Shown: positions 46,561 through 62,840 of the stretch, in pieces | How the letters are laid out: each line of letters begins with the position of its first letter | How positions within the stretch are numbered: the stretch's first letter is position 1 | Program-made: the position numbers and the translations under genes | Notes under the pieces: generated by a model | Told to the model about the DNA's origin: nothing | The model's database searches: none | What the model saw: the letters and a program-made list of their open reading frames with translations, nothing else | DNA from: Myxococcota bacterium | GTDB taxonomy: Bacteria > Myxococcota_A > Polyangia > Nannocystales > Nannocystaceae | DNA length: 64,000 nt | Direction of reading: 5' to 3' | Assembly: GCA_039028615.1 (NCBI GenBank) | Contig: JBCCHT010000003.1 | Location: 416,001-480,000, forward strand

Positions 46561-47025
46561 ATGGCTCGGAAAACGGTCGATCCCACGCTGGCCATACGAC
46601 GCAAAGCCGGCAGCTACGCTGGCGTGGACGAAGGCACCGCGTGCACCCAAAGCTCGTTCAAGACCGGCAAGAAGGCCTTCTTGTTCATCGGTGAGCAGGG
46701 CGGCCGCTACAAGGCGATGTTCAAGCTCTCCGACTCCAAGGCCGAAGCGCTGCGCCTGGCCGAGAAGGAGCCCGACCGTTTTCAAGCCGGCTCGAACCCC
46801 TGGGTCACCGCCCGCTTCTCCGCCGACGAGCCCATGCCGAAGGCGCTTTGGACCAAGTGGCTGGAGGAGAGCTACGGCCTGAGCGCGAGCCCGGCGAAGA
46901 AGAAGACGGGGGCGAAGAAGAAGACGGGGGCGAAGAAGAAGACGGCAGCGAAGAAGAAGACGGCTGCGAAGAGGAAGACGGGGGCGAAGAAGAAGACGGC
47001 GAAGAAGAAGACGGCGCGCCGATAG
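46561..47025 (+). CDS. MmcQ/YjbR-like protein with histone H1-like Lys-rich tail
   Basis: SFKTGKKAFLF, WVTARF, WLEESY, then (AKKKT[G/A])n. Confidence 0.8.
   Translation: MARKTVDPTLAIRRKAGSYAGVDEGTACTQSSFKTGKKAFLFIGEQGGRYKAMFKLSDSKAEALRLAEKEPDRFQAGSNPWVTARFSADEPMPKALWTKWLEESYGLSASPAKKKTGAKKKTGAKKKTAAKKKTAAKRKTGAKKKTAKKKTARR
46894..47016 (+). repeat. Coding tandem repeat, 18-bp unit, about 7 copies
   Basis: gcgaagaagaagacgggg variants. Confidence 0.85.
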
Positions 47026-47034
47026 CCCGGGGCG

Positions 47035-47321
47035 CTAGCGGCCGCGCCAGTAGCCGGGCTGTCGCTTCTGGTGCATCACGGCCAGCACCAGGATGTGGTC
47101 GGGCTCGATCGTGTACAGCAACCCGTAGGGAAAGCGGCGAAACGAGACGCGGCGTATGCCTGGCTCCAGCTCCGGCCAGGCAGTGGGAAGCTCGGAGATC
47201 CGCGAGCGTGCGAGCTTGTAGGCCTCAACGAACAGAGCGGCCGCCGTGGGCGAGCGCTCGGCGTACCACGAGGTGGCCCGACGGAGTTCGTCGCGGGCCT
47301 CCGGGGTCAGGGCGACCGCAT
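47035..47321 (-). pseudogene. RelE/ParE family toxin with a -1 frameshift just after the start codon
   Basis: Body VALTPEARDELRRATSWY...RRVSFRRFPYGLLY...ILVLAVMHQKRQPGYW is ParE-like. The ATG at 47321 reads MRSP*; one extra G would give MRVALTPE. Confidence 0.7.
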
Positions 47322-47323
47322 GC

Positions 47324-47587
47324 TCAGCCGGTGGCTCGCTCGGAGGGGTTGGACGCCGTCGCCACAATCTCGTCGAGTTCGCGTTCCACCACGCGTGAAT
47401 CGATCGGCGAGGACTCTCCCGCACGCACGCGCGAGATCCGTTGCTTGGCCTCCTCGATCCAGGCCGCCTCGATTTGCTCGGTCGGCCCGCGCTCGAGACT
47501 GTCGGTCAGCACCGCTGCGACCACCGCTCGCTCCCGTCGTGGAAGCTCGAGCAGTGCCTTCAGGATGTCGTCGACGTCCTCGGCCAC
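47324..47587 (-). CDS. Addiction-module antitoxin (putative addiction module component)
   Basis: ALLELPRRERAVVA..L.DSLE...IEAAWIEEAKQRI..VRAGE; directly upstream of the ParE-like gene. Confidence 0.88.
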   Translation of the reverse strand: MAEDVDDILKALLELPRRERAVVAAVLTDSLERGPTEQIEAAWIEEAKQRISRVRAGESSPIDSRVVERELDEIVATASNPSERATG

Positions 47588-47751: not shown

Positions 47752-48552
47752 TCAGCCTTGGGGCCAGCCTTGTCCCGGCGGTTGTCCTGGGGCCGGCGGT
47801 TGTCCGGGTTGGGGCTGAGCGAAGCCCTGGGGTGCCGCGGGTTGGCCGGGGTATCCGGCGGCGGGCTGACCGGGGTAGCCCTGCGGAGCGGCGGGCTGAC
47901 CGGGGGCGACGTGACCGGCGGGCGCTTGGGGCTGGGCCGGCTGTTGGCCGGCGAAGGGCTGACCGCCCTGAGGAGGCGAGGCCTGCGGCGGCTTGGCCTT
48001 GGGCTCGGGCATCTTCATGCCGCTGAGCTTGCCCAGGACGCCGAAGCCGAGCACGAAGAGGATCGAGGAGACGAGGGCGGACGAGAGGGCGGCCGCGACC
48101 GCGCTCCAGCTGGGCCAGTCGAGGACGGTGGAGATGAACCCGGCGAGCGCGGGCAGCAGGGAGACGGCACCGACGATGGCGATGACACCCGCGGCGAGTC
48201 GCTTGGCCTTGGGGTACTCCTCGGCGTTCGTGCGGGGGAAGAGCACGAGGGCGCCCCCGACCGCGAAACCACCACCGATGAGGACGGAGGGGAACGAGAC
48301 TTTGAAGCGGTCCCAGAACTCGTCGAAGGTGAGCAGCGTGTGCAGCAGGTCCTGCAGGCCGAGCGCGAACATGAAGGTCGCGACGACGGTGAGCACGGCG
48401 GCCACCGTCTTGAGGCCCAGCTGGGTATCGTCGGCGGTGGGGCTGTCCTTGCGGCGCGCGTCGTAGAGCAGCAGCAAGTACACCAACAGGGAGAGGGGCA
48501 GCGCAGACCAGGTCGCCAGCGCGCTCGGTGCCATCGGCAGCGGGAAGGGCAT
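47752..48552 (-). CDS. Multi-pass membrane protein with Pro/Gln/Gly-rich C-terminal tail
   Basis: About five hydrophobic segments, then GQPAAPQGYPGQP repeats; start inferred. Confidence 0.75.
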   Translation of the reverse strand: MPFPLPMAPSALATWSALPLSLLVYLLLLYDARRKDSPTADDTQLGLKTVAAVLTVVATFMFALGLQDLLHTLLTFDEFWDRFKVSFPSVLIGGGFAVGGALVLFPRTNAEEYPKAKRLAAGVIAIVGAVSLLPALAGFISTVLDWPSWSAVAAALSSALVSSILFVLGFGVLGKLSGMKMPEPKAKPPQASPPQGGQPFAGQQPAQPQAPAGHVAPGQPAAPQGYPGQPAAGYPGQPAAPQGFAQPQPGQPPAPGQPPGQGWPQG

Positions 48553-48656
48553 CGCCACGAAGGCTATCAGCTCCGCGCGTCGCGTTCGTTCCCACGAAGG
48601 GACGCCTGACCCGACCTTCGGGCCGGTGCGGGCTCGTTGCGGTGGAACGGCGATTG

Positions 48657-49178
48657 CTAGCCTGGCACGGAGACCTGCACCCGAAGACCCGCACGGACCT
48701 TCAGTGTCCCCAGCATGGCGGTGAAGGGCACGACGCCGAAGTCGGGTTGGTGGAGCTGCAGATCGACGGACCAGCGGCCGTCCTTGCGACGCGCCCACGC
48801 GGTGAGGGGCCGCTGCACGCCGTGCATCTCGAGCGTCCCTTCGACGCGCCGCTCGTCGCCCTCACCCGAGACGGTGCTCGATCGAAACACCACCTCGGGG
48901 TAGCGCCGCGTGTGCAGCACCTTGGTGTTGATGTTGTTTTCGATCTCCCGCTTGTTGCGAGCCGACAGCGTGCCCGGGTCGGGGCGGCCGTTCTTCATGG
49001 CGCAGTCGACTCGTAACGAGGTGGTGTCGAAGCGGGCGGCGACGGCCTCGGTGTCCTCGTCGATCTCGATGGTGAAGCGTTCGACCGAGAGCCGCAGGTC
49101 GTGAGCCACGGCCGAGAGCACACCGTCCTTGAAGGTGAGCACCGAGCACTTCGCATCGGTAGCGTCGAAGCGAGGCAT
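48657..49178 (-). CDS. YceI family lipid/polyisoprenoid-binding protein (no signal peptide)
   Basis: VLHTRRYPEVVFRS, VEGTLEMHGV, QPDFGVVP, LKV. Confidence 0.88.
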   Translation of the reverse strand: MPRFDATDAKCSVLTFKDGVLSAVAHDLRLSVERFTIEIDEDTEAVAARFDTTSLRVDCAMKNGRPDPGTLSARNKREIENNINTKVLHTRRYPEVVFRSSTVSGEGDERRVEGTLEMHGVQRPLTAWARRKDGRWSVDLQLHQPDFGVVPFTAMLGTLKVRAGLRVQVSVPG

Positions 49179-49184
49179 GAAGGG

Positions 49185-50798
49185 CTAGCTCGCGAGCGAG
49201 GGGCTGTGCTCGGTGGCGTCGGTCTGGGCGTAGCGGGCGGCACGGAAGCCGACCAGCATGCTCGGCGCGTTCAGAGCCGACACGGGCGTGAAGGGGATGG
49301 CGGAGGCATCCGCGATGCGGATGTTCTCGGTGCCCCGCAGCCGCAGGCGCTCGTCGCAGGCCGACGTCGGGTCGTCGCCCATCGAGCAGGTACCCGCGAA
49401 GTGATAGGTGGTGATCGCGTTGTTGGCGACCCAGCGAGCGATCTGGGCGTCGGAGCGCACCAGGGGCCCGGGCATGAGCTCGCGGCTGCGCCACGCCCTC
49501 AACCCACCGCTGCGGCTGAGCCGACGCGCGACCTTGATGCCCTCGACCATGGTGGCCATGTCGTCGGGGTGGGAGAAGTACGCGGGATCGATGACCGCCT
49601 GGGCTCGTGGATCGTTCGACTGCAGGCCCAGGCTGCCGCGGCTTCGCGGCTTGCCGAGGATGAGCACGATCCCGTAGAGGTGATCGACGAAGCGACGCAG
49701 CGTGCCGGAGCGGAAGGCCAGGCCCACCGCGTTGCGGACGCCCTGCTTGAGCGGCCCGTCGTAGAGCGAGGGCGGCAAGACCTGCCCCGGGAGCACGCGC
49801 TGGACCGCCTGCTTCATGGCCGAGCGCGCGGGCCAGAACACGTAGCAGGTGTCGCTCTGCCCGGTCGGCAGCGCGGCGGACTCGAGCGTGCGATAAAAGC
49901 TGTAAAGCTGCGGGTAGTTGCTGTCGACCGCTTGCTTCGAGACGAAGAAGAGCGGGACGTTGGGGTGATCGTGCAGGTTCTGGCCGATTGCGTCCTGCTC
50001 GATGAGCGTGGGCAAGCCGTGGGCGCGGAGGGTCTGGCTGGGGCCGACGCCCGAGAGCATGAGCAGCTTGGGGGTCTCGAGCGCCCCGGCACACATCACG
50101 ACCTCGCGGCGGACTTCGGCCCGGCAGCGCACGCCGTCCTGCTCGTACTCCACGGCGACCACGCGGCGCTGTTCGAATACGAGGCGATGCACCAAGGAGC
50201 CCGAGCGCACCACGAGGTTGTCGCGCTGCCCGGCGTCCTTGATGAACGCGACGTAGGAGCTGCGACGGCGGTCGCCCTCGTAGGTCATGGGCTCGTAGCC
50301 GACCACGCCACCGAGGTCACCGTCGCTCATGTCGGTGCTGCGACGAAAGCCACAGGTAGTGGCGGCGGAGATGCAGGCCTCGGTCCAGCGGGTGGCCGGG
50401 CGCGAGCGGGGCCGAAGCTTGGCCTCGATGCGTTCGAAGTCGGGGACCACGTCGTCCCACTGCCACCCGGAGGGCCAGTCGTCGTAGTCGCGGGCGTCGC
50501 CGCGGGTGTAGACCATGCCGTTGACCGAGCCGCTCCCGCCCAGCACGGTGCCCGTCCCCGCGAAGATCCGCTGGCCGCCCGCGTTCTTCTGCGGCGCGGT
50601 GAAGCGCTCCCAGATCACCTCGTCGTTGATGAAGGCGTCCTTGTAGCCATCGGCCGACAGCGTCTCGGGATGCGTCTCGGCACGGGGCCCCGCTTCGAGC
50701 AGCAGCACTCGGCAGTTCGGATCGTCGGCGAGCTGGGCCGCGGCGATGCAGCCCGAAGAGCCGCCGCCGACCACCACGTAGTCGTAGGTCTCGTTCAT
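49185..50798 (-). CDS. GMC family FAD oxidoreductase
   Basis: YDYVVVGGGSSG, LLLEAG, GTVLGGSGSVNGMVYTRG, TPKLLMLSGVG, GQNLHDH, YHFAGTCSMG, ADASAIP...ALNAP; ATG overlaps the upstream TGA (ATGA). Confidence 0.95.
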   Translation of the reverse strand: MNETYDYVVVGGGSSGCIAAAQLADDPNCRVLLLEAGPRAETHPETLSADGYKDAFINDEVIWERFTAPQKNAGGQRIFAGTGTVLGGSGSVNGMVYTRGDARDYDDWPSGWQWDDVVPDFERIEAKLRPRSRPATRWTEACISAATTCGFRRSTDMSDGDLGGVVGYEPMTYEGDRRRSSYVAFIKDAGQRDNLVVRSGSLVHRLVFEQRRVVAVEYEQDGVRCRAEVRREVVMCAGALETPKLLMLSGVGPSQTLRAHGLPTLIEQDAIGQNLHDHPNVPLFFVSKQAVDSNYPQLYSFYRTLESAALPTGQSDTCYVFWPARSAMKQAVQRVLPGQVLPPSLYDGPLKQGVRNAVGLAFRSGTLRRFVDHLYGIVLILGKPRSRGSLGLQSNDPRAQAVIDPAYFSHPDDMATMVEGIKVARRLSRSGGLRAWRSRELMPGPLVRSDAQIARWVANNAITTYHFAGTCSMGDDPTSACDERLRLRGTENIRIADASAIPFTPVSALNAPSMLVGFRAARYAQTDATEHSPSLAS

Positions 50799-52393
50799 TT
50801 GCGTCCCACCAGGCTTCGTACGAGGTCGCCGGCTCCGCTCAGCCTGCGGCGCACGCCGGGGCCGTACACCATCTGCAGCGCGCTCTTGATGCGGCTGAAG
50901 TCTTCGTTGGCCACGGGGAACACTTTGTTGGGGAACCCGAAGGGCAGGCGGTCGTCGAGGACGGCCTTGACGTTGCAGCACGCCCGCAGGCCCTCGCGGC
51001 CGTTGATGCGCCCGAAGCCGGACTCCTTGACGCCGCCGAAGGTCAGGCCCTGGACCATGTAGGTCATGGCCCCGAAGTCGTTGATCGCGGTCATGCCCGC
51101 CTGCAGGCGGTCACCGATGGCGCGGGCCCGATCGCGGTCGCGGCTGAAGACGGAAGACGACAGGCCGTAGCTGGTGGCGTTGGCCACTTGCACCGCCTCG
51201 TGCTCGTCGTTGACCCGGCACAGGAGCATGACGGGGCCGAAGGTCTCCTCGTGCATGATCTCCATGTCGGGGGTGACGTCGGCCAGCACGGTGGGGGCGA
51301 AGAACTCGCCTTCGTCGGCGAGGGTCCGGGTGCCGCCTTGCACCACGCGGGCCCCTTGCTCCACCGCCCGCGAGACCAGGCCTTCGACGATCTCGCGCTG
51401 CATCGGGGTGACCATGGCCCCGACGTCGACGCGCTCGGCACCGTGCGGGTTGCCCTGGCGAAGCTCGGCCGTCAGCTGGCCGACCCGGGCCTCGAACTGG
51501 TCGTAGATCGAGTCGAAGACGAGGATGCGCTCCGAGGCCACGCAGTTCTGACCGGCGGAGAAGAAGCAGCTGTTGATCGTCGCGTAGGCGGTCTGCTCGA
51601 GGTTGGCGTCGTCGCAGACGATGAGCGGATCCTTGCCGCCCAGCTCGAGGATGACCGGGGTGATGTTCTTGGCCGCGGCCTCGAGCACGCGCCGCCCGTT
51701 GCCCACCGAGCCGATGAAGATCAGCGAGTCCACCCCCCCTTCGACCAGCGCCTGGCCGGTCTCACCGTAGCCCTGCACCACCTGCACCAGCTCGGGCGAT
51801 TGCCCCTCGGCCTCGAGCGCGTCGGCGACGATCTGGATGAAGGGGCGGGCCGACCACGCGACCCACTCGGAGGGCTTGACCACGTACCCGTTGCCGGCCA
51901 TCAGCGCCGGGATGAGCGGGTTCATGACGTTCTGAAAGGGGTAGTTCCACGGGGTGATGGCCCCGATGACCCCGAGCGGCCGGTACTCGAGTCGCGCTTT
52001 CTTGTGCTTGAGCAGACCCGACGAGACGGGCTCCGGTCGCAGGTGGCGGGGCCCCTGCGAGGCGGTCCAGCGCAGCTTCTCGAGCACCATCCAGACCTCG
52101 CCCATCAGGGCGTTCTCGCGGGTCTTGCCCGAGTCGCGCACGACCAGGTCGACCAGCTCGTCCATGCGATCGACGATGCTGGTGATGATCCGTCGGAACA
52201 CGCGACGGCGCAGGGCGAAGTCGGTCTCGGCCCAGCCGATCTGCGCCTCGCGGGCGCGGGCGATGGCGCGACGCACGTCGTCGGGGCTGTCGATGGGCAC
52301 GGCGCCCAGCGGCTCGCGGGTGGCCGGATCGAAGCAGCGAATGAGCCCCGGCTCGGCGCGGAGGTTCAGCACGGGAGGATTGGGGGCGTTCAT
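50795..52393 (-). CDS. Aldehyde dehydrogenase (Msc7/ALDH22-like subgroup)
   Basis: ITPWNYPF, KPSE, FIGS, LELGGKDP, AGQNCVA (catalytic Cys), EETFGP, FGGVKESGFGR; ATGA overlap with the Rieske gene stop. Confidence 0.95.
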   Translation of the reverse strand: MNAPNPPVLNLRAEPGLIRCFDPATREPLGAVPIDSPDDVRRAIARAREAQIGWAETDFALRRRVFRRIITSIVDRMDELVDLVVRDSGKTRENALMGEVWMVLEKLRWTASQGPRHLRPEPVSSGLLKHKKARLEYRPLGVIGAITPWNYPFQNVMNPLIPALMAGNGYVVKPSEWVAWSARPFIQIVADALEAEGQSPELVQVVQGYGETGQALVEGGVDSLIFIGSVGNGRRVLEAAAKNITPVILELGGKDPLIVCDDANLEQTAYATINSCFFSAGQNCVASERILVFDSIYDQFEARVGQLTAELRQGNPHGAERVDVGAMVTPMQREIVEGLVSRAVEQGARVVQGGTRTLADEGEFFAPTVLADVTPDMEIMHEETFGPVMLLCRVNDEHEAVQVANATSYGLSSSVFSRDRDRARAIGDRLQAGMTAINDFGAMTYMVQGLTFGGVKESGFGRINGREGLRACCNVKAVLDDRLPFGFPNKVFPVANEDFSRIKSALQMVYGPGVRRRLSGAGDLVRSLVGRK

Positions 52394-53532
52394 CGGCTCA
52401 GGTTCTCCTGGGGCACGAGCGGCGCCTTGCGGCGCTTGCTGGTCTTGCCCGTGCGCTCGAGGTACTCGCTCCACTTGCGGATCGACAGGTCTTGGAAGGC
52501 CTTGACCACGGGGGACAGCTCGGGCCCGGGCTTGTCCCAGTGGCGTTCCCAGCCCTGCTGCTCGTGCCCGATGACCCAGACGTCTTGGCTGAGCAGGGGC
52601 TTGAGCGTCGTCAGGCGGGTCATCTTCATCATCTTGTCTGCGATGAAGCGCGGAACGGGGCCGAGGCCGGGCAGGCGAATCGTGCCCGGCCGCAGGTAGA
52701 AGATGAAGATGTGCCGATTCGACGACTCGTCCATCGGCAGCGTGAACAAGAAGTGCTTGATGCGGTCGTCGGTATTCGACCAGTGGTAGGGGTAGTCGTA
52801 GCAGGCGAGCATGTGGTCGCAGCCGCTGTCGCCCCGCTCGACGAACATGTCTTGCAGGCGCCCGGCCGCGATCTTCGAGTCGTACTCGAGCTCGACCCGA
52901 TCGCCGATCTCTTCGATGCGCCGCAGGTCGGTGCCCTCGAAGGGCTGGAACTTGCGGTGCAGGAACCCGTGGGTGAAGTCCGAGACGTTCTCCAGCAGCA
53001 TCGAGTGGTGGCCGGGGCAATCGAACTGGACGATCGCGTGCGGCCACGGGCGCGGGCCCTCGAGCTCGGGGATGGAGGGGATGTCGCGGGTCTTGGCGAC
53101 CTCGGGATCGCCGGGAAAGATGAAGACCAGGCCGTAGCGCTCGCGGACGGGGACCGACGCGATGCGAACGTTGGGCTCCTTGCGGCCGAACAGGTCGTGG
53201 TCGATCTTGCCGCGCCCCTGCCCGTCGTAGGACCAGCCGTGATAGGGGCAGACCAGGCGGCAGCCGACGACCTCGCCCTCGGTCAGCCGCACGTGACGGT
53301 GGGCGCAGCGGTTCTCGACCGCGTTGAGCCGCCCGTCTTCTCCCCGGAACACGGCGATCGATCGGCCGAGGAATTTCGTCTCGAAGTGCTGGCCCTTGCC
53401 CACGTTCTTCGACTGCTCGACCGCGTACCAGTAGTCGGGATCGAGCCCCGCCGCGCGTGCCTTCTGACGGCGGGTGCGGGCCTCCTCGAACGTGGGGGGC
53501 GGGCCAGGGGCGTGGCCGGAGAGGTCGGTCAT
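52390..53532 (-). CDS. Rieske non-heme iron oxygenase, SdmA-like
   Basis: Rieske CAHR...CPYHGW; mononuclear site ENVSDFTHGFLH and distal QD. RRQKARAAG..YWY, IPELEGPRPWP, YDYPY and EQQGWERH...ELSP..FQDLS..KW resemble Methylococcus SdmA as I recall it. Confidence 0.9.
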   Translation of the reverse strand: MTDLSGHAPGPPPTFEEARTRRQKARAAGLDPDYWYAVEQSKNVGKGQHFETKFLGRSIAVFRGEDGRLNAVENRCAHRHVRLTEGEVVGCRLVCPYHGWSYDGQGRGKIDHDLFGRKEPNVRIASVPVRERYGLVFIFPGDPEVAKTRDIPSIPELEGPRPWPHAIVQFDCPGHHSMLLENVSDFTHGFLHRKFQPFEGTDLRRIEEIGDRVELEYDSKIAAGRLQDMFVERGDSGCDHMLACYDYPYHWSNTDDRIKHFLFTLPMDESSNRHIFIFYLRPGTIRLPGLGPVPRFIADKMMKMTRLTTLKPLLSQDVWVIGHEQQGWERHWDKPGPELSPVVKAFQDLSIRKWSEYLERTGKTSKRRKAPLVPQENLSR

Positions 53533-53573
53533 GGCGAGGGCTCCATGCAGAGGACGCGCGGTCCGCGGATTGA

Positions 53574-53595
53574 AAACAGAATTGAGATTCTGTTT
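53574..53595. promoter_or_regulatory. Palindromic TetR-type operator between the Rieske operon and tetR
   Basis: AAACAGAAT-tgag-ATTCTGTTT; overlaps a possible TTGAGA-N16-TACTAT promoter for tetR. Confidence 0.75.
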
Positions 53596-53624
53596 GGCTA
53601 AGCTACTATTCTGCCCCACAGGCC

Positions 53625-54299
53625 ATGTCAAGCGACGCTGCGCACCATGCCGACAATCCCCGCGAGCGCCTCAAGCAGGCCCGGCGGGCGCTCTATCGCG
53701 AGGCGATCATCGATGCGTCGGAGCGGATCTTTGCCGAGCACGGCTACGACGCGGCCAAGGTGCAGGCCATCGCGAAGGCGGCCGGGGTCTCGCTCGCAAC
53801 CTTCTATGCCGTGTTCCCCAAGAAGTGGGATGCGTTCCGAGCGGTGCAGGCCGATCGTCTCGCATCGTTGATGCAGCGCGTCGGCACCGAGGTGCTCGCG
53901 GCCGACGATGCCTTCGGTCGACTGCGGGCCGGGCTCGAGGGCTACCTGCGCTTCCACATGGAGCACCCCGAGTTCTTGCGCATGCAGCTGCGCGAGCGGG
54001 TGCCCTGGGGCACGACCGACGAGCTGCGCACGCCCGAGCAAACGCGGGCGTGGGAGGCCGGCCTACAGATGCTCATCGCCGCGTTGAAGGAAGGCATGGC
54101 CGAGGGTTCCTTTCGCGAGGACGACCCCGAGCTGTGTGCTCGAACCGCGACTGCGATGAGCCAGGTTCGACTCGCGCTGTGGGAAGGGCGAGGGATGAAC
54201 GAGTCGCCCGACGCGGTCGCTCGCGAAGCCATGCTCCAGCTGGTGCGGACCTTCGCGGCCGCGGACCGAGTGCACGGGTTGTCGCAGCGCATCGGCTGA
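53625..54299 (+). CDS. TetR/AcrR family transcriptional regulator
   Basis: REAIIDASERIFAEHGYDAAKVQAIAKAAGVSLATFYAVFPKK. Confidence 0.95.
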   Translation: MSSDAAHHADNPRERLKQARRALYREAIIDASERIFAEHGYDAAKVQAIAKAAGVSLATFYAVFPKKWDAFRAVQADRLASLMQRVGTEVLAADDAFGRLRAGLEGYLRFHMEHPEFLRMQLRERVPWGTTDELRTPEQTRAWEAGLQMLIAALKEGMAEGSFREDDPELCARTATAMSQVRLALWEGRGMNESPDAVAREAMLQLVRTFAAADRVHGLSQRIG

Positions 54300-54508
54300 C
54301 GCTCGTCGCCCGCTTCACCGACCATCGCCGTCGTCCTTGGACACCCGCGGGGCCCGCCGTGCGCCCGGTGGTAATGCCGATTTAATAGGCGACGTTGCGC
54401 TTTGTACCGGAATGTCGGGGGTATCCCGGTGTCGGACTGTGTAGGAAGACGACGCACTCCGCGAGGCGCTCGGGCGTCACGCCGAGACGGCGACGAAGGG
54501 GGACGACG

Positions 54509-55906
54509 ATGGTCGCGAAACGACTTCAGAACGCAGTTTGGGGGCTGGGACTGGGCGTGTGCGTGGGGTTGGGAGGCGCCTGCGACGCGCCGCACGATCT
54601 CGATCCCGAGCCGATCGAGGCGCCCGAAGATCCGCTGGCCGGAGGCAAGGGGGACGATCTCAACTCGTCCACGGTCACCGACCCGGGCGCGCTTCGTTGG
54701 TCGGCAATCGCCCAGGTCCGTGGCGAGCCGGTCGGCGCTCCGTTGTTCGTGAGCAACAACCCCGAGCATGTCGAGGGCTTCGGGATCCTGGCCGGCGTGC
54801 CCTACCCCGGCCTGTCGCTGCGTGGGGCCCAGCGCGCGCCCGATGCCCCCGAGGCGCAGTGGTCACGGCAGATCGTCGACGAGCGCTGCCCGGATGGCGG
54901 CGCCCAGGAGTTCGGGGTGTACCTCGCTCATATCCTGCCCGCCGATCTCGGCAGCGGTCGGCGAATCACGCTGGGCCTGGTCGCCGAGGACGACGCGACC
55001 ATCACCGTCCGCGGCAAGATGGGCACCACGGACTGGTCGAGCGGAGGGCAGCTTCTCACCACCGAGACCACCTGGCTGGGAGCCCAGCTCGCCCGCTCGT
55101 TCTTCTTCGATCACGACGCGCCCGAGCGCACCTTCGAGGCCGAGGCCGGCAAGTTCGTCGAGGTCGACGTGCAGATGGCCGCATCGCTGGTCGAAGGTCG
55201 CTATCACGTCGAGAGCGACACCTGCCTCTACCCCTTCACCATCGCGCACGGCCGTGGCCTGGGTGGTCACCTGCCCCGTCACTACGCCAAGGGGGATGTG
55301 AAGTGGCCCGGTTGGTACGAGGGAAGCGGCTACGGGCGTGCAGCCGGGGTCTACGAGGCCGATCACTTCAGCGGGGAGCAGGCGGTGATCGTCGACGAGG
55401 TGCCCTCGGTGCAGGGCGTGGGCCTGCTGACCCCCGACGACTCGTTCCCCGCGCTCGCGCGGCACGAAGACTCGGCCGAGCTGCTCTTCGGCAACTACGG
55501 CGTGCTCTACGATCACACGCTGAACCTGGTCAACGACACGGAGGCGTGCATCGAGGCAAACGTCGAGCTGGTCTCGTACATCGATCGCAACGCCACGCCG
55601 GGCCGCACCCCGACGGTGGGCTTTTTCGAGGACACGGCGGACGCCTATACGCCCTCGATGTTCTGGAACGGCCCGGTGCGCGTGGGGACGGCACGAGGTC
55701 AGCAGCTGCATCACCCCGTGCTGCACTACGCTCCGACCGAGGCCGAGCGTGCGGAACGGAATCGAGCCGTGGCCAGCATGCGGCACAGCCTGCTGAAGGT
55801 CGAGCTGGCGGCGGGGCAGGTCTTCGACGTGGAGGTCGAGCTGCCCGTGCCGGGATACATCGTGGCTCCGATCGCACTGACCGTGCACGCGCAGCCCTGC
55901 GGCTGA
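54509..55906 (+). CDS. Hypothetical lipoprotein, DUF3370-like
   Basis: Lipobox LGGAC; myxobacterial GGKGD motif; LFVSNNPE...GIL and GNYGVLYD motifs. Confidence 0.65.
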   Translation: MVAKRLQNAVWGLGLGVCVGLGGACDAPHDLDPEPIEAPEDPLAGGKGDDLNSSTVTDPGALRWSAIAQVRGEPVGAPLFVSNNPEHVEGFGILAGVPYPGLSLRGAQRAPDAPEAQWSRQIVDERCPDGGAQEFGVYLAHILPADLGSGRRITLGLVAEDDATITVRGKMGTTDWSSGGQLLTTETTWLGAQLARSFFFDHDAPERTFEAEAGKFVEVDVQMAASLVEGRYHVESDTCLYPFTIAHGRGLGGHLPRHYAKGDVKWPGWYEGSGYGRAAGVYEADHFSGEQAVIVDEVPSVQGVGLLTPDDSFPALARHEDSAELLFGNYGVLYDHTLNLVNDTEACIEANVELVSYIDRNATPGRTPTVGFFEDTADAYTPSMFWNGPVRVGTARGQQLHHPVLHYAPTEAERAERNRAVASMRHSLLKVELAAGQVFDVEVELPVPGYIVAPIALTVHAQPCG

Positions 55907-61724: not shown

Positions 61725-62840
61725 ATGAGCACGGACACCAGCATTCCTCGGGGCAAGGTCTTGGTGACGGGCGGCAGCGGGCACGTGGGGGCCAACCTCG
61801 TGCATGCCCTGCTCGCCGAAGGGCAGGAGGTTCGCTGCCTGGTGCTGCCGGGCGCGAGCGAGCGTGCCTTCGAAGGGCTGCCCGTGGAGCGCTTCGAGGG
61901 GGACATCCGCGACCCGCAGGCCATGCTCGCCGCGACCAAGGGCTGCGCCCGGGTCTTCCACGTGGCCGCCAAGGTCTCCACCCTCAACGCCACCGCGGGG
62001 GAGCAGCGCGAGCTGTACGAGATCAACGTGCTCGGCACCCGCAACGTGATGCGGGCCTGCCTCGAAAACGGCGTCGACCGGGCCGTGCTCACCGGGTCGT
62101 TCTCCTCGACCGGCTTCGACCTCGACGACCCTTCCAAGCCCAGCCACGAGGCGCGGCCCTTCTATCCCTTCGGGCACGTCATGCCCTACTCGCACACCAA
62201 GGCCCTGGCCGAGCACGAGACCCTCAAGTGCGTGGTCGAGGGGCTCGATGCGGTGATCGTGACCTCGTGCGCCTGCGTCGGGCCGTGGGACTACATGCCC
62301 TCGCGCATGGGTCGGACGATGATCGACTACGCCAACGGCAAGCTGCGTGCGTTCGTGCCCGGTGGCTTCGACTTCGTCAACGGCCGGGACATCGCCCAGG
62401 GACACCTGCTGGCCATGGAGCGCGGCCGGGCCGGCCAGAAGTACATCTGCAGCACGCACTTTCACACCCTCGAGGACCTGGTGGGGTTCTTCTCCGAGGT
62501 GACCGGCCTGCCTCCCGTGCGCCTACAGGTGCCGGCCAAGCTCATGGCCAAGGTGACGGGACTGTACGCGGGGTCGTTGGCCAAGCTGTTTCCCAAGCTG
62601 CCGCAGCGGCTCACGCCCGGGGCGATCGGCGTGCTGCAGATGCGGCGACACGCCGACACCAGCAAGGCGCAGCGGGAGCTGGGCTATCGACCCACCAGCA
62701 TTCGCGAGGCGGTGCGGGATGCGTTCGTGTTCTTCGCGCGTGAGGGCAAGCTGCCGCCCGAGGTTCGGGATCGAGTGTTGTCGACGCACGCCGAGGCGGC
62801 CGAAGCCGCAGGGTTGTACCGCGGCGCCCGAGTGCACTGA
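61725..62840 (+). CDS. Extended SDR (NAD-dependent epimerase/dehydratase), SdmB/HpnA-like
   Basis: VTGGSGHVGANLV, HVAAKVS, INVLGTRN, YSHTK, VGPWDYMPSRMGRTMIDYANGKLRAFVPGGFDFV, KAQRELGY.PTS. Confidence 0.88.
   Translation: MSTDTSIPRGKVLVTGGSGHVGANLVHALLAEGQEVRCLVLPGASERAFEGLPVERFEGDIRDPQAMLAATKGCARVFHVAAKVSTLNATAGEQRELYEINVLGTRNVMRACLENGVDRAVLTGSFSSTGFDLDDPSKPSHEARPFYPFGHVMPYSHTKALAEHETLKCVVEGLDAVIVTSCACVGPWDYMPSRMGRTMIDYANGKLRAFVPGGFDFVNGRDIAQGHLLAMERGRAGQKYICSTHFHTLEDLVGFFSEVTGLPPVRLQVPAKLMAKVTGLYAGSLAKLFPKLPQRLTPGAIGVLQMRRHADTSKAQRELGYRPTSIREAVRDAFVFFAREGKLPPEVRDRVLSTHAEAAEAAGLYRGARVH

Follow-up and report, generated by a model that had tools for sequence, protein, structure and literature searches.

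An operon joining an SdmA-like Rieske oxygenase to an aldehyde dehydrogenase and a GMC oxidoreductase in a Nannocystaceae genome, with a predicted role in sterol C-4 demethylation

Gene layout of the operon

We analyzed a stretch of 64,000 nucleotides from the genome of a Myxococcota bacterium of the family Nannocystaceae (GCA_039028615.1, contig JBCCHT010000003.1, positions 416,001 to 480,000), here called the window, which has ~69% G+C. An earlier note, made from the letters alone, had proposed that it holds a TetR-regulated operon for the oxidation of methyl sterols or triterpenoids. The operon consists of genes for an SdmA-like Rieske oxygenase, an aldehyde dehydrogenase (ALDH), a GMC oxidoreductase, and a YceI-like protein, all read in one direction, with a tetR gene diverging from them, as established from the open reading frame (ORF) listing and translation (Table 1). 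The layout that the note described is accurate: ATGA stop/start overlaps join the Rieske gene to the ALDH gene (52390-52393) and the ALDH gene to the GMC gene (50795-50798), a 6-nt gap (TAG CCCTTC ATG) leads from GMC to YceI, and Pfam backs all five families. Also as described there, a ferredoxin or reductase gene was not found in the operon, by Pfam or among the neighboring ORFs. On a Kyte-Doolittle profile, hydrophobic N-termini and membrane-span-like segments are absent from all six proteins of interest, an SdmB-like protein encoded farther along the window included, and the expected catalytic motifs are intact; from these features, all six look soluble and cytoplasmic.

Table 1. Features of the operon and of the associated SdmB-like gene; positions are those of the window
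Feature	Position	Strand	Length	Basis
YceI-like gene	48657-49178	-	173 aa	ORF listing, Pfam YceI
GMC oxidoreductase gene	49185-50798	-	537 aa	ORF listing, Pfam GMC_oxred_N/C
ALDH gene	50795-52393	-	532 aa	ORF listing, Pfam Aldedh
SdmA-like Rieske oxygenase gene, first of the operon	52390-53532	-	380 aa	ORF listing, Pfam Rieske + VanA_C
Candidate TetR operator	53574-53595	none		9-bp inverted arms, 4-bp spacer
Sigma-70-like tetR promoter	53582-53609	+		Consensus match only
TetR-family repressor gene	53625-54299	+	224 aa	Pfam TetR_N + TetR_C_24
SdmB-like extended SDR gene	61725-62840	+	371 aa	NF052578

The oxygenase, its orthologues, and its partners

To the NCBIfam SdmA model, NF052579, the Rieske protein matches almost end to end (model positions 3-346 of 351; E 2.8e-102, 342.3 bits), with GbcA the runner-up family at 35 bits. 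It is the sole strong SdmA-like gene in the 12.27-Mb genome, where the next Rieske gene reaches 85 bits. The ligands of the Rieske center, C76/H78/C95/H98 (CxH..CxxH), and the mononuclear-iron site, N182..D185..H188...H192, are in place, and 17 family sequences show no variation at these residues or at D317, probably a further iron ligand. The C-terminal half of the protein matches Pfam VanA_C weakly. A search with the protein among 1.84 billion proteins returned only 62 representative clusters at E<=1e-30, so the SdmA-like family is a small one. The sequence blocks that the note gave as SdmA-type are present and coincide with invariant alignment columns, although two of the spacings given there are off by 1-3 residues. 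Elsewhere in the genome, three consecutive Rieske-domain oxygenase genes (C58:2517-7289) match the SdmA model weakly, at 57-85 bits.

Phylogeny places the protein in the same company. In a quick IQ-TREE analysis of 51 proteins from the fetched loci, of which 14 are other Rieske proteins and none is an experimentally characterized SdmA, the window's protein and four relatives form a clade (support 100) inside a Myxococcota SdmA clade (95/97), and a branch with support 100 splits the SdmA group from the 14 other Rieske proteins. The remainder of the Myxococcota SdmA clade adjoins an SdmB-like short-chain dehydrogenase/reductase (SDR), in clusters with fusions of squalene epoxidase and oxidosqualene cyclase (SE-OSC), P450, ERG24, SQS, HMGR, or SMT. 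The end-to-end model match and the nesting in this clade bear out the note's SdmA assignment, and the grouping is with SdmA of sterol clusters, not with aromatic O-demethylases. Judged by its sequence, then, the Rieske gene is a true SdmA relative and the genome's sole SdmA orthologue, and its product is predicted to be a sterol C-4 methyl hydroxylase. Family scan, phylogeny, and gene neighborhoods all speak against an aromatic O-demethylase, and that reading was rejected.

The window-type clade sits on a long stem, with 0.83 changes per column, and nine near-fixed differences separate it from 34 classical SdmA sequences (W137F, A174G, V221I, L243A, Q250H, W261F, T272N, A320V, and N340S). A structure model of the protein (pLDDT 84.7) has the alpha3 Rieske monooxygenase fold. 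The nearest solved folds are SxtT/GxtA, DdmC, and KshA, at 17-19% identity; no SdmA structure was present in the library searched.

Within the family, an SdmA-like gene was found at E<=1e-40 in 63 of 73 genomes. Two types are apparent: the window type, at 68-84% identity, in 29 genomes including the window's own, with one more broken (G431), and a classical SdmA type, at about 43-52% identity, in 33. Because no genome among the 73 carries both, the window type is an orthologue rather than an extra paralogue. The gene order proved stable as well, with Rieske, ALDH, and GMC genes contiguous in 27 of 30 window-type genomes and a contig end intervening in the other three (G409, G413, and G403). 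The Rieske gene of G431 (G431:C400:1482-2574) is split in two with a TAG at the joint, beside intact ALDH and GMC genes, a break that reflects either pseudogene formation or a mistake in assembly.

Both partner enzymes are intact members of their families. The ALDH (Pfam Aldedh, 445 bits) carries the catalytic motifs ELGGK and GQNC; no NCBIfam equivalog reached its cut-off, a PDB sequence search returned generic relatives only, and the genome has one copy of the ALDH orthogroup. The GMC protein (PF00732, 137.9 bits; PF05199, 110.4 bits) has GGGSSG at residue 11 and the histidine of HFAGTCSMG at residue 466, which we take to be the FAD-binding GxGxxG and the C-terminal active-site His, respectively. 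NCBIfam choline dehydrogenase models fall far below their cut-offs for this protein, and its best solved relative in the PDB search is 8b7s, a chloramphenicol primary-alcohol oxidase. From their families and gene order, the GMC enzyme is predicted to take 4-hydroxymethylsterol to 4-formylsterol, and the ALDH to take 4-formylsterol to 4-carboxysterol.

The fourth gene is less closely bound to the operon. The YceI-like protein matches PF04264 at 40.1 bits, against a cut-off of 23.7, and has no signal peptide; a PDB search gave generic relatives and a weak match, 26 bits, to the solved Escherichia coli YceI (1y0g). The note had placed it in the operon as a lipid carrier. Its position immediately after the GMC gene stands, but the linkage is loose: in the three loci of the same genus that were examined, YceI and GMC are 0.1, 0.7, and 4.1 kb apart, and YceI was not found at other window-type loci except that of G255. 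Only the window's genus thus has YceI beside GMC, and two other genera have it at a different place. A lone GMC homologue in G457 has a YceI gene as its immediate neighbor. The protein is a possible carrier of the hydrophobic substrate, and may bind sterols. At the G255 locus (L037:6057-9619), an operon of TetR, SdmB, a FAD_binding_3 protein of 376 aa, and, at its end, YceI stands opposite Rieske-ALDH-GMC, with the lipid-transport genes MlaD and MlaE after GMC. Homologues of this FAD protein occur in sterol clusters L097 and L199, and a relationship to Bsr, the GGR-type C-24 sterol reductase described in PMC12004948, is possible.

Evidence of regulation comes from the 92-bp divergent region, which holds the inverted repeat AAACAGAAT-TGAG-ATTCTGTTT. 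The note's claim that tetR diverges across a palindrome is confirmed, the arms being of 9 bp, and the palindrome is unique in the genome: there is a single copy of the core CAGAAT-N4-ATTCTG in the window, against 0.01 expected by chance (with at most one mismatch), and a single copy in the whole 12.27-Mb genome, in which a reversed control pattern occurs 0 times. GAAT-N4-ATTC is kept in all 13 window-type loci that have tetR, and the arms change together: four genera have CAGAAT/ATTCTG, a fifth GCGGAAT/ATTCCGC. The same type of palindrome is present in three of five TetR regions tested from other-type ALDH-GMC loci. A conserved palindrome with paired arms is good comparative evidence for a putative TetR operator. 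A candidate tetR promoter (TTGAGA, 16 nt, TACTAT; 1 site versus 0.3 in shuffled sequences, a consensus match only) has its -35 hexamer overlapping the palindrome.

TetR itself (PF00440, 48.8 bits) has as its nearest NCBIfam and PDB relatives fatty-acid- and acyl-CoA-sensing TetRs, weak matches that fall below cut-off, and a sterol-like inducer is a guess. Orthologues at 54-82% identity flank the module in relatives, and tetR is divergent in 13 of 14 window-type loci inspected. In G444, of the same genus as the window (L212:10840-11100), tetR and the operator are missing, the first tetR codons are left, and Rieske-ALDH-GMC-YceI is otherwise intact, which suggests a deletion and constitutive expression of the operon.

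The note, which contrasted the operon with the two-gene SdmAB arrangement, named no SdmB gene here. This is not a system lacking SdmB, since an SdmB-like gene is present inside the window. Its product matches the SdmB model NF052578 over positions 3-325 of 328 (E 8.7e-90, 301.8 bits), with HpnA second at 245.9 bits, and is the best SdmB match in the genome, where the next scores 190.7 bits. GGSGHVG (GxxGxxG) is found at residue 16 and YSHTK (YxxxK) at residue 155. The gene lies 7.4 kb from tetR, with five unrelated genes between; in G340 and G255, a 63%-identical orthologue is directly beside tetR, with SdmB and TetR on one side and Rieske-ALDH-GMC on the other, and in G463 and G468 the orthologue is <4 kb from the operon. 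Orthologues at 50-55% identity adjoin SdmA in sterol clusters. The SdmB-like SDR is predicted to be a C-4 decarboxylase/3-ketoreductase.

A search of the genome for osc, smo, and cyp51 genes recovered an OSC with the motif VSDCTAEA on contig C5, a squalene-epoxidase-like gene on C10, and a CYP51-like P450 on C52, plus ERG24. The P450, found with P450s from relatives' sterol clusters as baits, is 44-47% identical to them and is divergent from ERG24. A 3beta-HSD gene is located on C3, about 57 kb before the window, and a FA_hydroxylase gene on C11. The genome's sterol genes are scattered, a pattern already published for this group (PMC10152446 and PMC12004948). The squalene-epoxidase-like FAD monooxygenase, the only one in the genome, adjoins a second, divergent squalene-hopene-cyclase-like gene (C10:214062-217525), not OSC; the product of that gene, of 661 aa, scores 161 bits to hopene cyclase, below cut-off.

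Several other genes lie near the operon. One of the five genes between tetR and the SdmB-like gene, directly after tetR at 54395-55906 (+), encodes a 503-aa protein with a weak DUF3370 match only, and it is not between them in G340 or G255. On the other side, 98 nt downstream of YceI and on the same strand (47752-48558, -), is a gene for a 268-aa protein with no Pfam match, hydrophobic stretches (by eye), and a proline/glutamine-rich tail. Just downstream of the operon region, a YjbR-family gene (46561-47025, +) stands beside a ParE-toxin-family gene (47035-47424, -).

The ALDH-GMC-TetR module in other sterol contexts

To follow the ALDH and GMC genes beyond the window type, we compared 19 other loci of the ALDH orthogroup, which were hand-picked and not a random sample. 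GMC adjoins ALDH in 15 of them, and a sterol-type neighbor (SdmA, ERG25-like, 3beta-HSD, CYP51-like, or OSC) is found in 12. Some are built around SdmA. At L099, GMC and ALDH are read one way and, divergently, TetR, a 3beta-HSD-like gene, SdmA, and a CYP51-like P450 the other, with ERG24 farther along; L044 has SE-OSC, SdmB, SdmA, and two ALDH genes. Others pair the module with an ERG25-like hydroxylase. At L214, TetR, 3beta-HSD, and FA_hydroxylase run in one direction and ALDH and GMC in the other, and SdmA was not found in that genome, which is 84% complete. The same set of FA_hydroxylase, 3beta-HSD, TetR, ALDH, and GMC recurs in L224, L225, and L233-L236. At L230, OSC, SE-SQS, FA_hydroxylase, P450, ALDH, and GMC share one strand, and at L227 a 3beta-HSD and a 29%-identical P450 accompany ALDH-GMC, with a weaker FA_hydroxylase-like hit 4 kb away; neither locus gave a TetR hit.

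Since the module is found in both SdmA and ERG25-like clusters, the same orthologous ALDH, GMC, and TetR serve as partners to hydroxylases of two unrelated kinds and to decarboxylase-type SDRs of two unrelated kinds. This recurrence is, in our view, the strongest clue to function. In an alphaproteobacterial metagenome-assembled genome, a sterol cluster (L103:4136-12562) has two SdmA-like genes, 49% and 40% identical to the window's, together with OSC, SdmB, P450, and ERG24. A CYP51-like P450 match lies within the fetched stretches L224, L225, L234, and L235.

A wider association with sterol synthesis is apparent in a phylum sample of 401 genomes, whose members are relatives and thus not independent. 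SdmA-like genes are present in 22 of these, the ALDH orthogroup in 34, and an OSC-like gene, at E<=1e-80, in 47. The OSC-like gene occurs in 21 of the 34 ALDH-orthogroup genomes versus 26 of the 367 others, and 17 of the 34 have SdmA-like genes. The association has exceptions in genus g6, where four genomes that are 98-100% complete (G035, G047, G085, and G130; loci L233-L236) have the whole cluster of 3beta-HSD, FA_hydroxylase, and TetR opposite ALDH-GMC and no OSC-like gene. For those relatives an exogenous-sterol or non-sterol substrate is conceivable: they could be scavengers of sterol precursors or bear a module whose substrate is not a sterol. The g6 genomes are about 4-5 Mb, and 10 of the 18 sampled yielded no OSC-like gene at E<=1e-80.

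Predicted pathway, its rivals, and known systems

We think it somewhat probable that the locus is an SdmA/SdmB-type C-4 demethylation system for the cell's own sterols, in which GMC and ALDH split the three-step methyl oxidation with the oxygenase. SdmA would hydroxylate the 4-methyl group of endogenous 4,4-dimethyl or 4-methyl sterols, the GMC enzyme would convert the 4-hydroxymethyl group to the aldehyde, and ALDH would convert the aldehyde to the 4-carboxylate, after which SdmB would oxidize C-3, decarboxylate, and re-reduce. YceI might hold the hydrophobic intermediate for the soluble enzymes, and TetR would leave its operator once a sterol-like ligand accumulates. The path from methyl to alcohol to aldehyde to acid that the earlier note proposed is thus retained as the most economical reading, the module traveling with two unrelated kinds of sterol C-4 enzyme, although the individual steps are inferred. 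Its suggestion of a separate new pathway gives way to that of an elaboration of SdmAB C-4 demethylation.

Several observations weigh against this reading. The Rieske and SdmB-like proteins, at 342 and 302 bits, both fall below the 600-bit equivalog cut-offs of their models; that of NF052579 is reached by none of 14 control genomes, nor by the window's genome, and the model's name points to Methylococcus-type sequences. Only 5 of the 14 window-type loci had SdmB inside the stretch that was fetched, and no operator copy (at most one mismatch) occurs at the SdmB-like gene in the window. The repressor gene is deleted in G444. Among the 19 other ALDH loci, 7 are without a sterol-type neighbor and 4 without an adjacent GMC, and 13 of the 34 ALDH-positive genomes, some of them 98-100% complete, are without an OSC-like gene at E<=1e-80. 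The "CYP51-like" label is drawn from Pfam p450 and the 44-47% identity to sterol-cluster P450s, not from a CYP51-specific model; an NCBIfam scan of 16 P450 pieces was uninformative on this point. The genome's separate ERG25-like and 3beta-HSD genes could do C-4 demethylation by themselves. Characterized SdmA enzymes, as the text of PMC10202945 presents them, carry out the demethylation oxidations without ALDH or GMC, which in principle makes the extra enzymes dispensable. Substrate, position, and step order are read from gene neighborhood alone.

The leading alternative keeps the operon in sterol metabolism and has GMC and ALDH serve another carbon, turning a side-chain or angular methyl into a sterol acid product or signal, or has them detoxify leaked sterol aldehydes. 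The long stem of the window-type clade and its nine substitutions, W137F, L243A, and W261F among them, could mean a changed substrate or position, and the ERG25-like and 3beta-HSD pair could cover C-4; myxobacterial sterols with extra hydroxylations have also been published (PMC10152446). We consider this unlikely, as the window type takes the place of classical SdmA, the two never co-occurring in the 73 family genomes, and as ALDH-GMC is tied to a C-4 decarboxylase-type SDR, SdmB or 3beta-HSD, in every sterol-linked arrangement seen.

Less likely still is the role that the note had suggested, in which sterols or triterpenoids acquired from prey or the surroundings both induce the operon and are remodeled by its enzymes, with no part in the cell's own pathway. 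A ligand-type TetR with an operator unique in the genome would suit such a role, as would a possible lipid carrier, YceI, co-transcribed with the enzymes, and the four near-complete g6 genomes keep their cluster without an OSC-like gene. The main sterols of eukaryotic prey, however, are without C-4 methyls, and the operon includes no uptake system among proteins that look soluble and cytoplasmic. Endogenous sterol biosynthesis is the likelier setting here because OSC, ERG24, a CYP51-like P450, and an epoxidase-like gene are all encoded in the genome, together with one SdmA and one strong SdmB; OSC is likewise present in all five window-type genomes of the phylum sample (the window's and four relatives). 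In addition, PMC12004948 describes C-4 demethylation genes as inherited vertically with Osc in Nannocystaceae.

A function apart from sterols, either a bet-like choline system (BetI/BetB/BetA) or a TsaM- or Alk-like pathway that oxidizes aromatic or aliphatic methyl groups, is very improbable: TetR, ALDH, and GMC are indeed the betIBA gene families, choline dehydrogenase and betaine aldehyde dehydrogenase (BADH) are among the best NCBIfam names, and the Rieske C-terminal half matches VanA_C weakly, but the Rieske protein matches SdmA end to end with GbcA far behind, belongs to a family of few clusters, is set off from other Rieske families by a fully supported branch, and has sterol genes as its relatives' neighbors. 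A bet operon was rejected on NCBIfam scores far short of the cut-offs, which for betA (TIGR01810) are 278 versus 732 bits, for BADH (TIGR01804) 331 versus 669, and for BetI (TIGR03384) 26 versus 201.

Returning to C-4 demethylation of endogenous sterols, we propose more tentatively, and with chances that we put slightly short of even, that many Myxococcota run a split relay. In such a relay, a hydroxylase, either SdmA or an ERG25-like di-iron enzyme, would perform only the first, O2-dependent hydroxylation, GMC and ALDH would finish the oxidation to the carboxylate, and a sterol-sensing TetR would exert control. If true, this would be a fourth bacterial route of C-4 demethylation, costing one oxygenase turnover per methyl instead of three, and it would account for the halt of E. 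salina SdmAB at the aldehyde stage in E. coli.

Bacterial sterol synthesis bears on the origin of the eukaryotic pathway and on the reading of sterane biomarkers, and C-4 demethylation is the step at which bacteria and eukaryotes differ most. Participation of the GMC-ALDH-TetR module would lower the oxygen cost of 4-desmethyl sterols, which is relevant in low-oxygen settings, and would mean that heterologous reconstitutions without GMC and ALDH genes show the pathway only in part; it would also provide a possible sterol sensor, in the form of a repressor that responds to a ligand and has a defined operator of 22 bp. Because other genomes have the module next to an unrelated hydroxylase, gene swaps in the existing E. 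coli system could test the idea.

Three bacterial variants have been published, the methanotroph SdmAB, the Calothrix SdmAB, and the E. salina SdmABC, and an operon with GMC and ALDH would add to these a mode of bacterial sterol trimming that has not been described. Full-text searches yielded no paper that links GMC or ALDH to bacterial sterol C-4 demethylation, subscription papers such as Lee et al. 2018 being outside their scope. ALDH, GMC, TetR, and ferredoxin have 0 occurrences in the main text and six supplementary files of PMC10202945, in which the genomic-context figure is an image and so outside a text search, and aldehyde dehydrogenase and GMC have 0 in the main text of PMC12004948.

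Compared with SdmA and SdmB of Methylococcus capsulatus (MCA1016 and MCA1017; Lee et al. 2018, cited in PMC10202945), the window likewise encodes a Rieske oxygenase and an extended SDR, which match the NCBIfam models of those proteins over their full length. Unlike that pair, the window's proteins score about half the equivalog cut-off and their genes are 8 kb apart, whereas the M. capsulatus genes are adjacent. The window's oxygenase gene is also translationally coupled to ALDH and GMC genes and apparently TetR-controlled, an arrangement for which sdmAB has no described counterpart.

The SdmA/SdmB/SdmC system of Enhygromyxa salina comes from the same phylum as the window and probably from the same family. 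The window's SdmA is 47-52% identical to family members that have the classical SdmB-SdmA pair, and the SdmB next to SdmA in genus g269 shares 61-65% identity with the window's SdmB-like protein. According to the text of PMC10202945, SdmA of E. salina or Calothrix, when alone in E. coli, accumulates the 4-aldehyde. This is an intermediate that an ALDH such as the one in the window operon would clear, and by analogy it fits the relay, as does a primary-alcohol oxidase being the nearest solved relative of the GMC protein.

The eukaryotic ERG25/ERG26/ERG27 scheme, as outlined in PMC10202945, follows the same course from methyl to carboxylate, 3-dehydrogenation with decarboxylation, and 3-keto reduction. 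There, ERG25 does all three oxidations, and neither a flavoprotein nor an ALDH belongs to the scheme, unlike the arrangement in the window. In relatives of the window, the ALDH-GMC module is found together with ERG25-like and ERG26-like (3beta-HSD) genes. A bacterial precedent for dividing such an oxidation is found in alkane metabolism: in the AlkB/AlkJ/AlkH system of Pseudomonas, the alcohol formed by an iron oxygenase is oxidized to the aldehyde by a GMC-family dehydrogenase and on to the acid by an ALDH. The window's enzymes would share this working principle, with a likeness at the level of family, while differing in oxygenase family and substrate.

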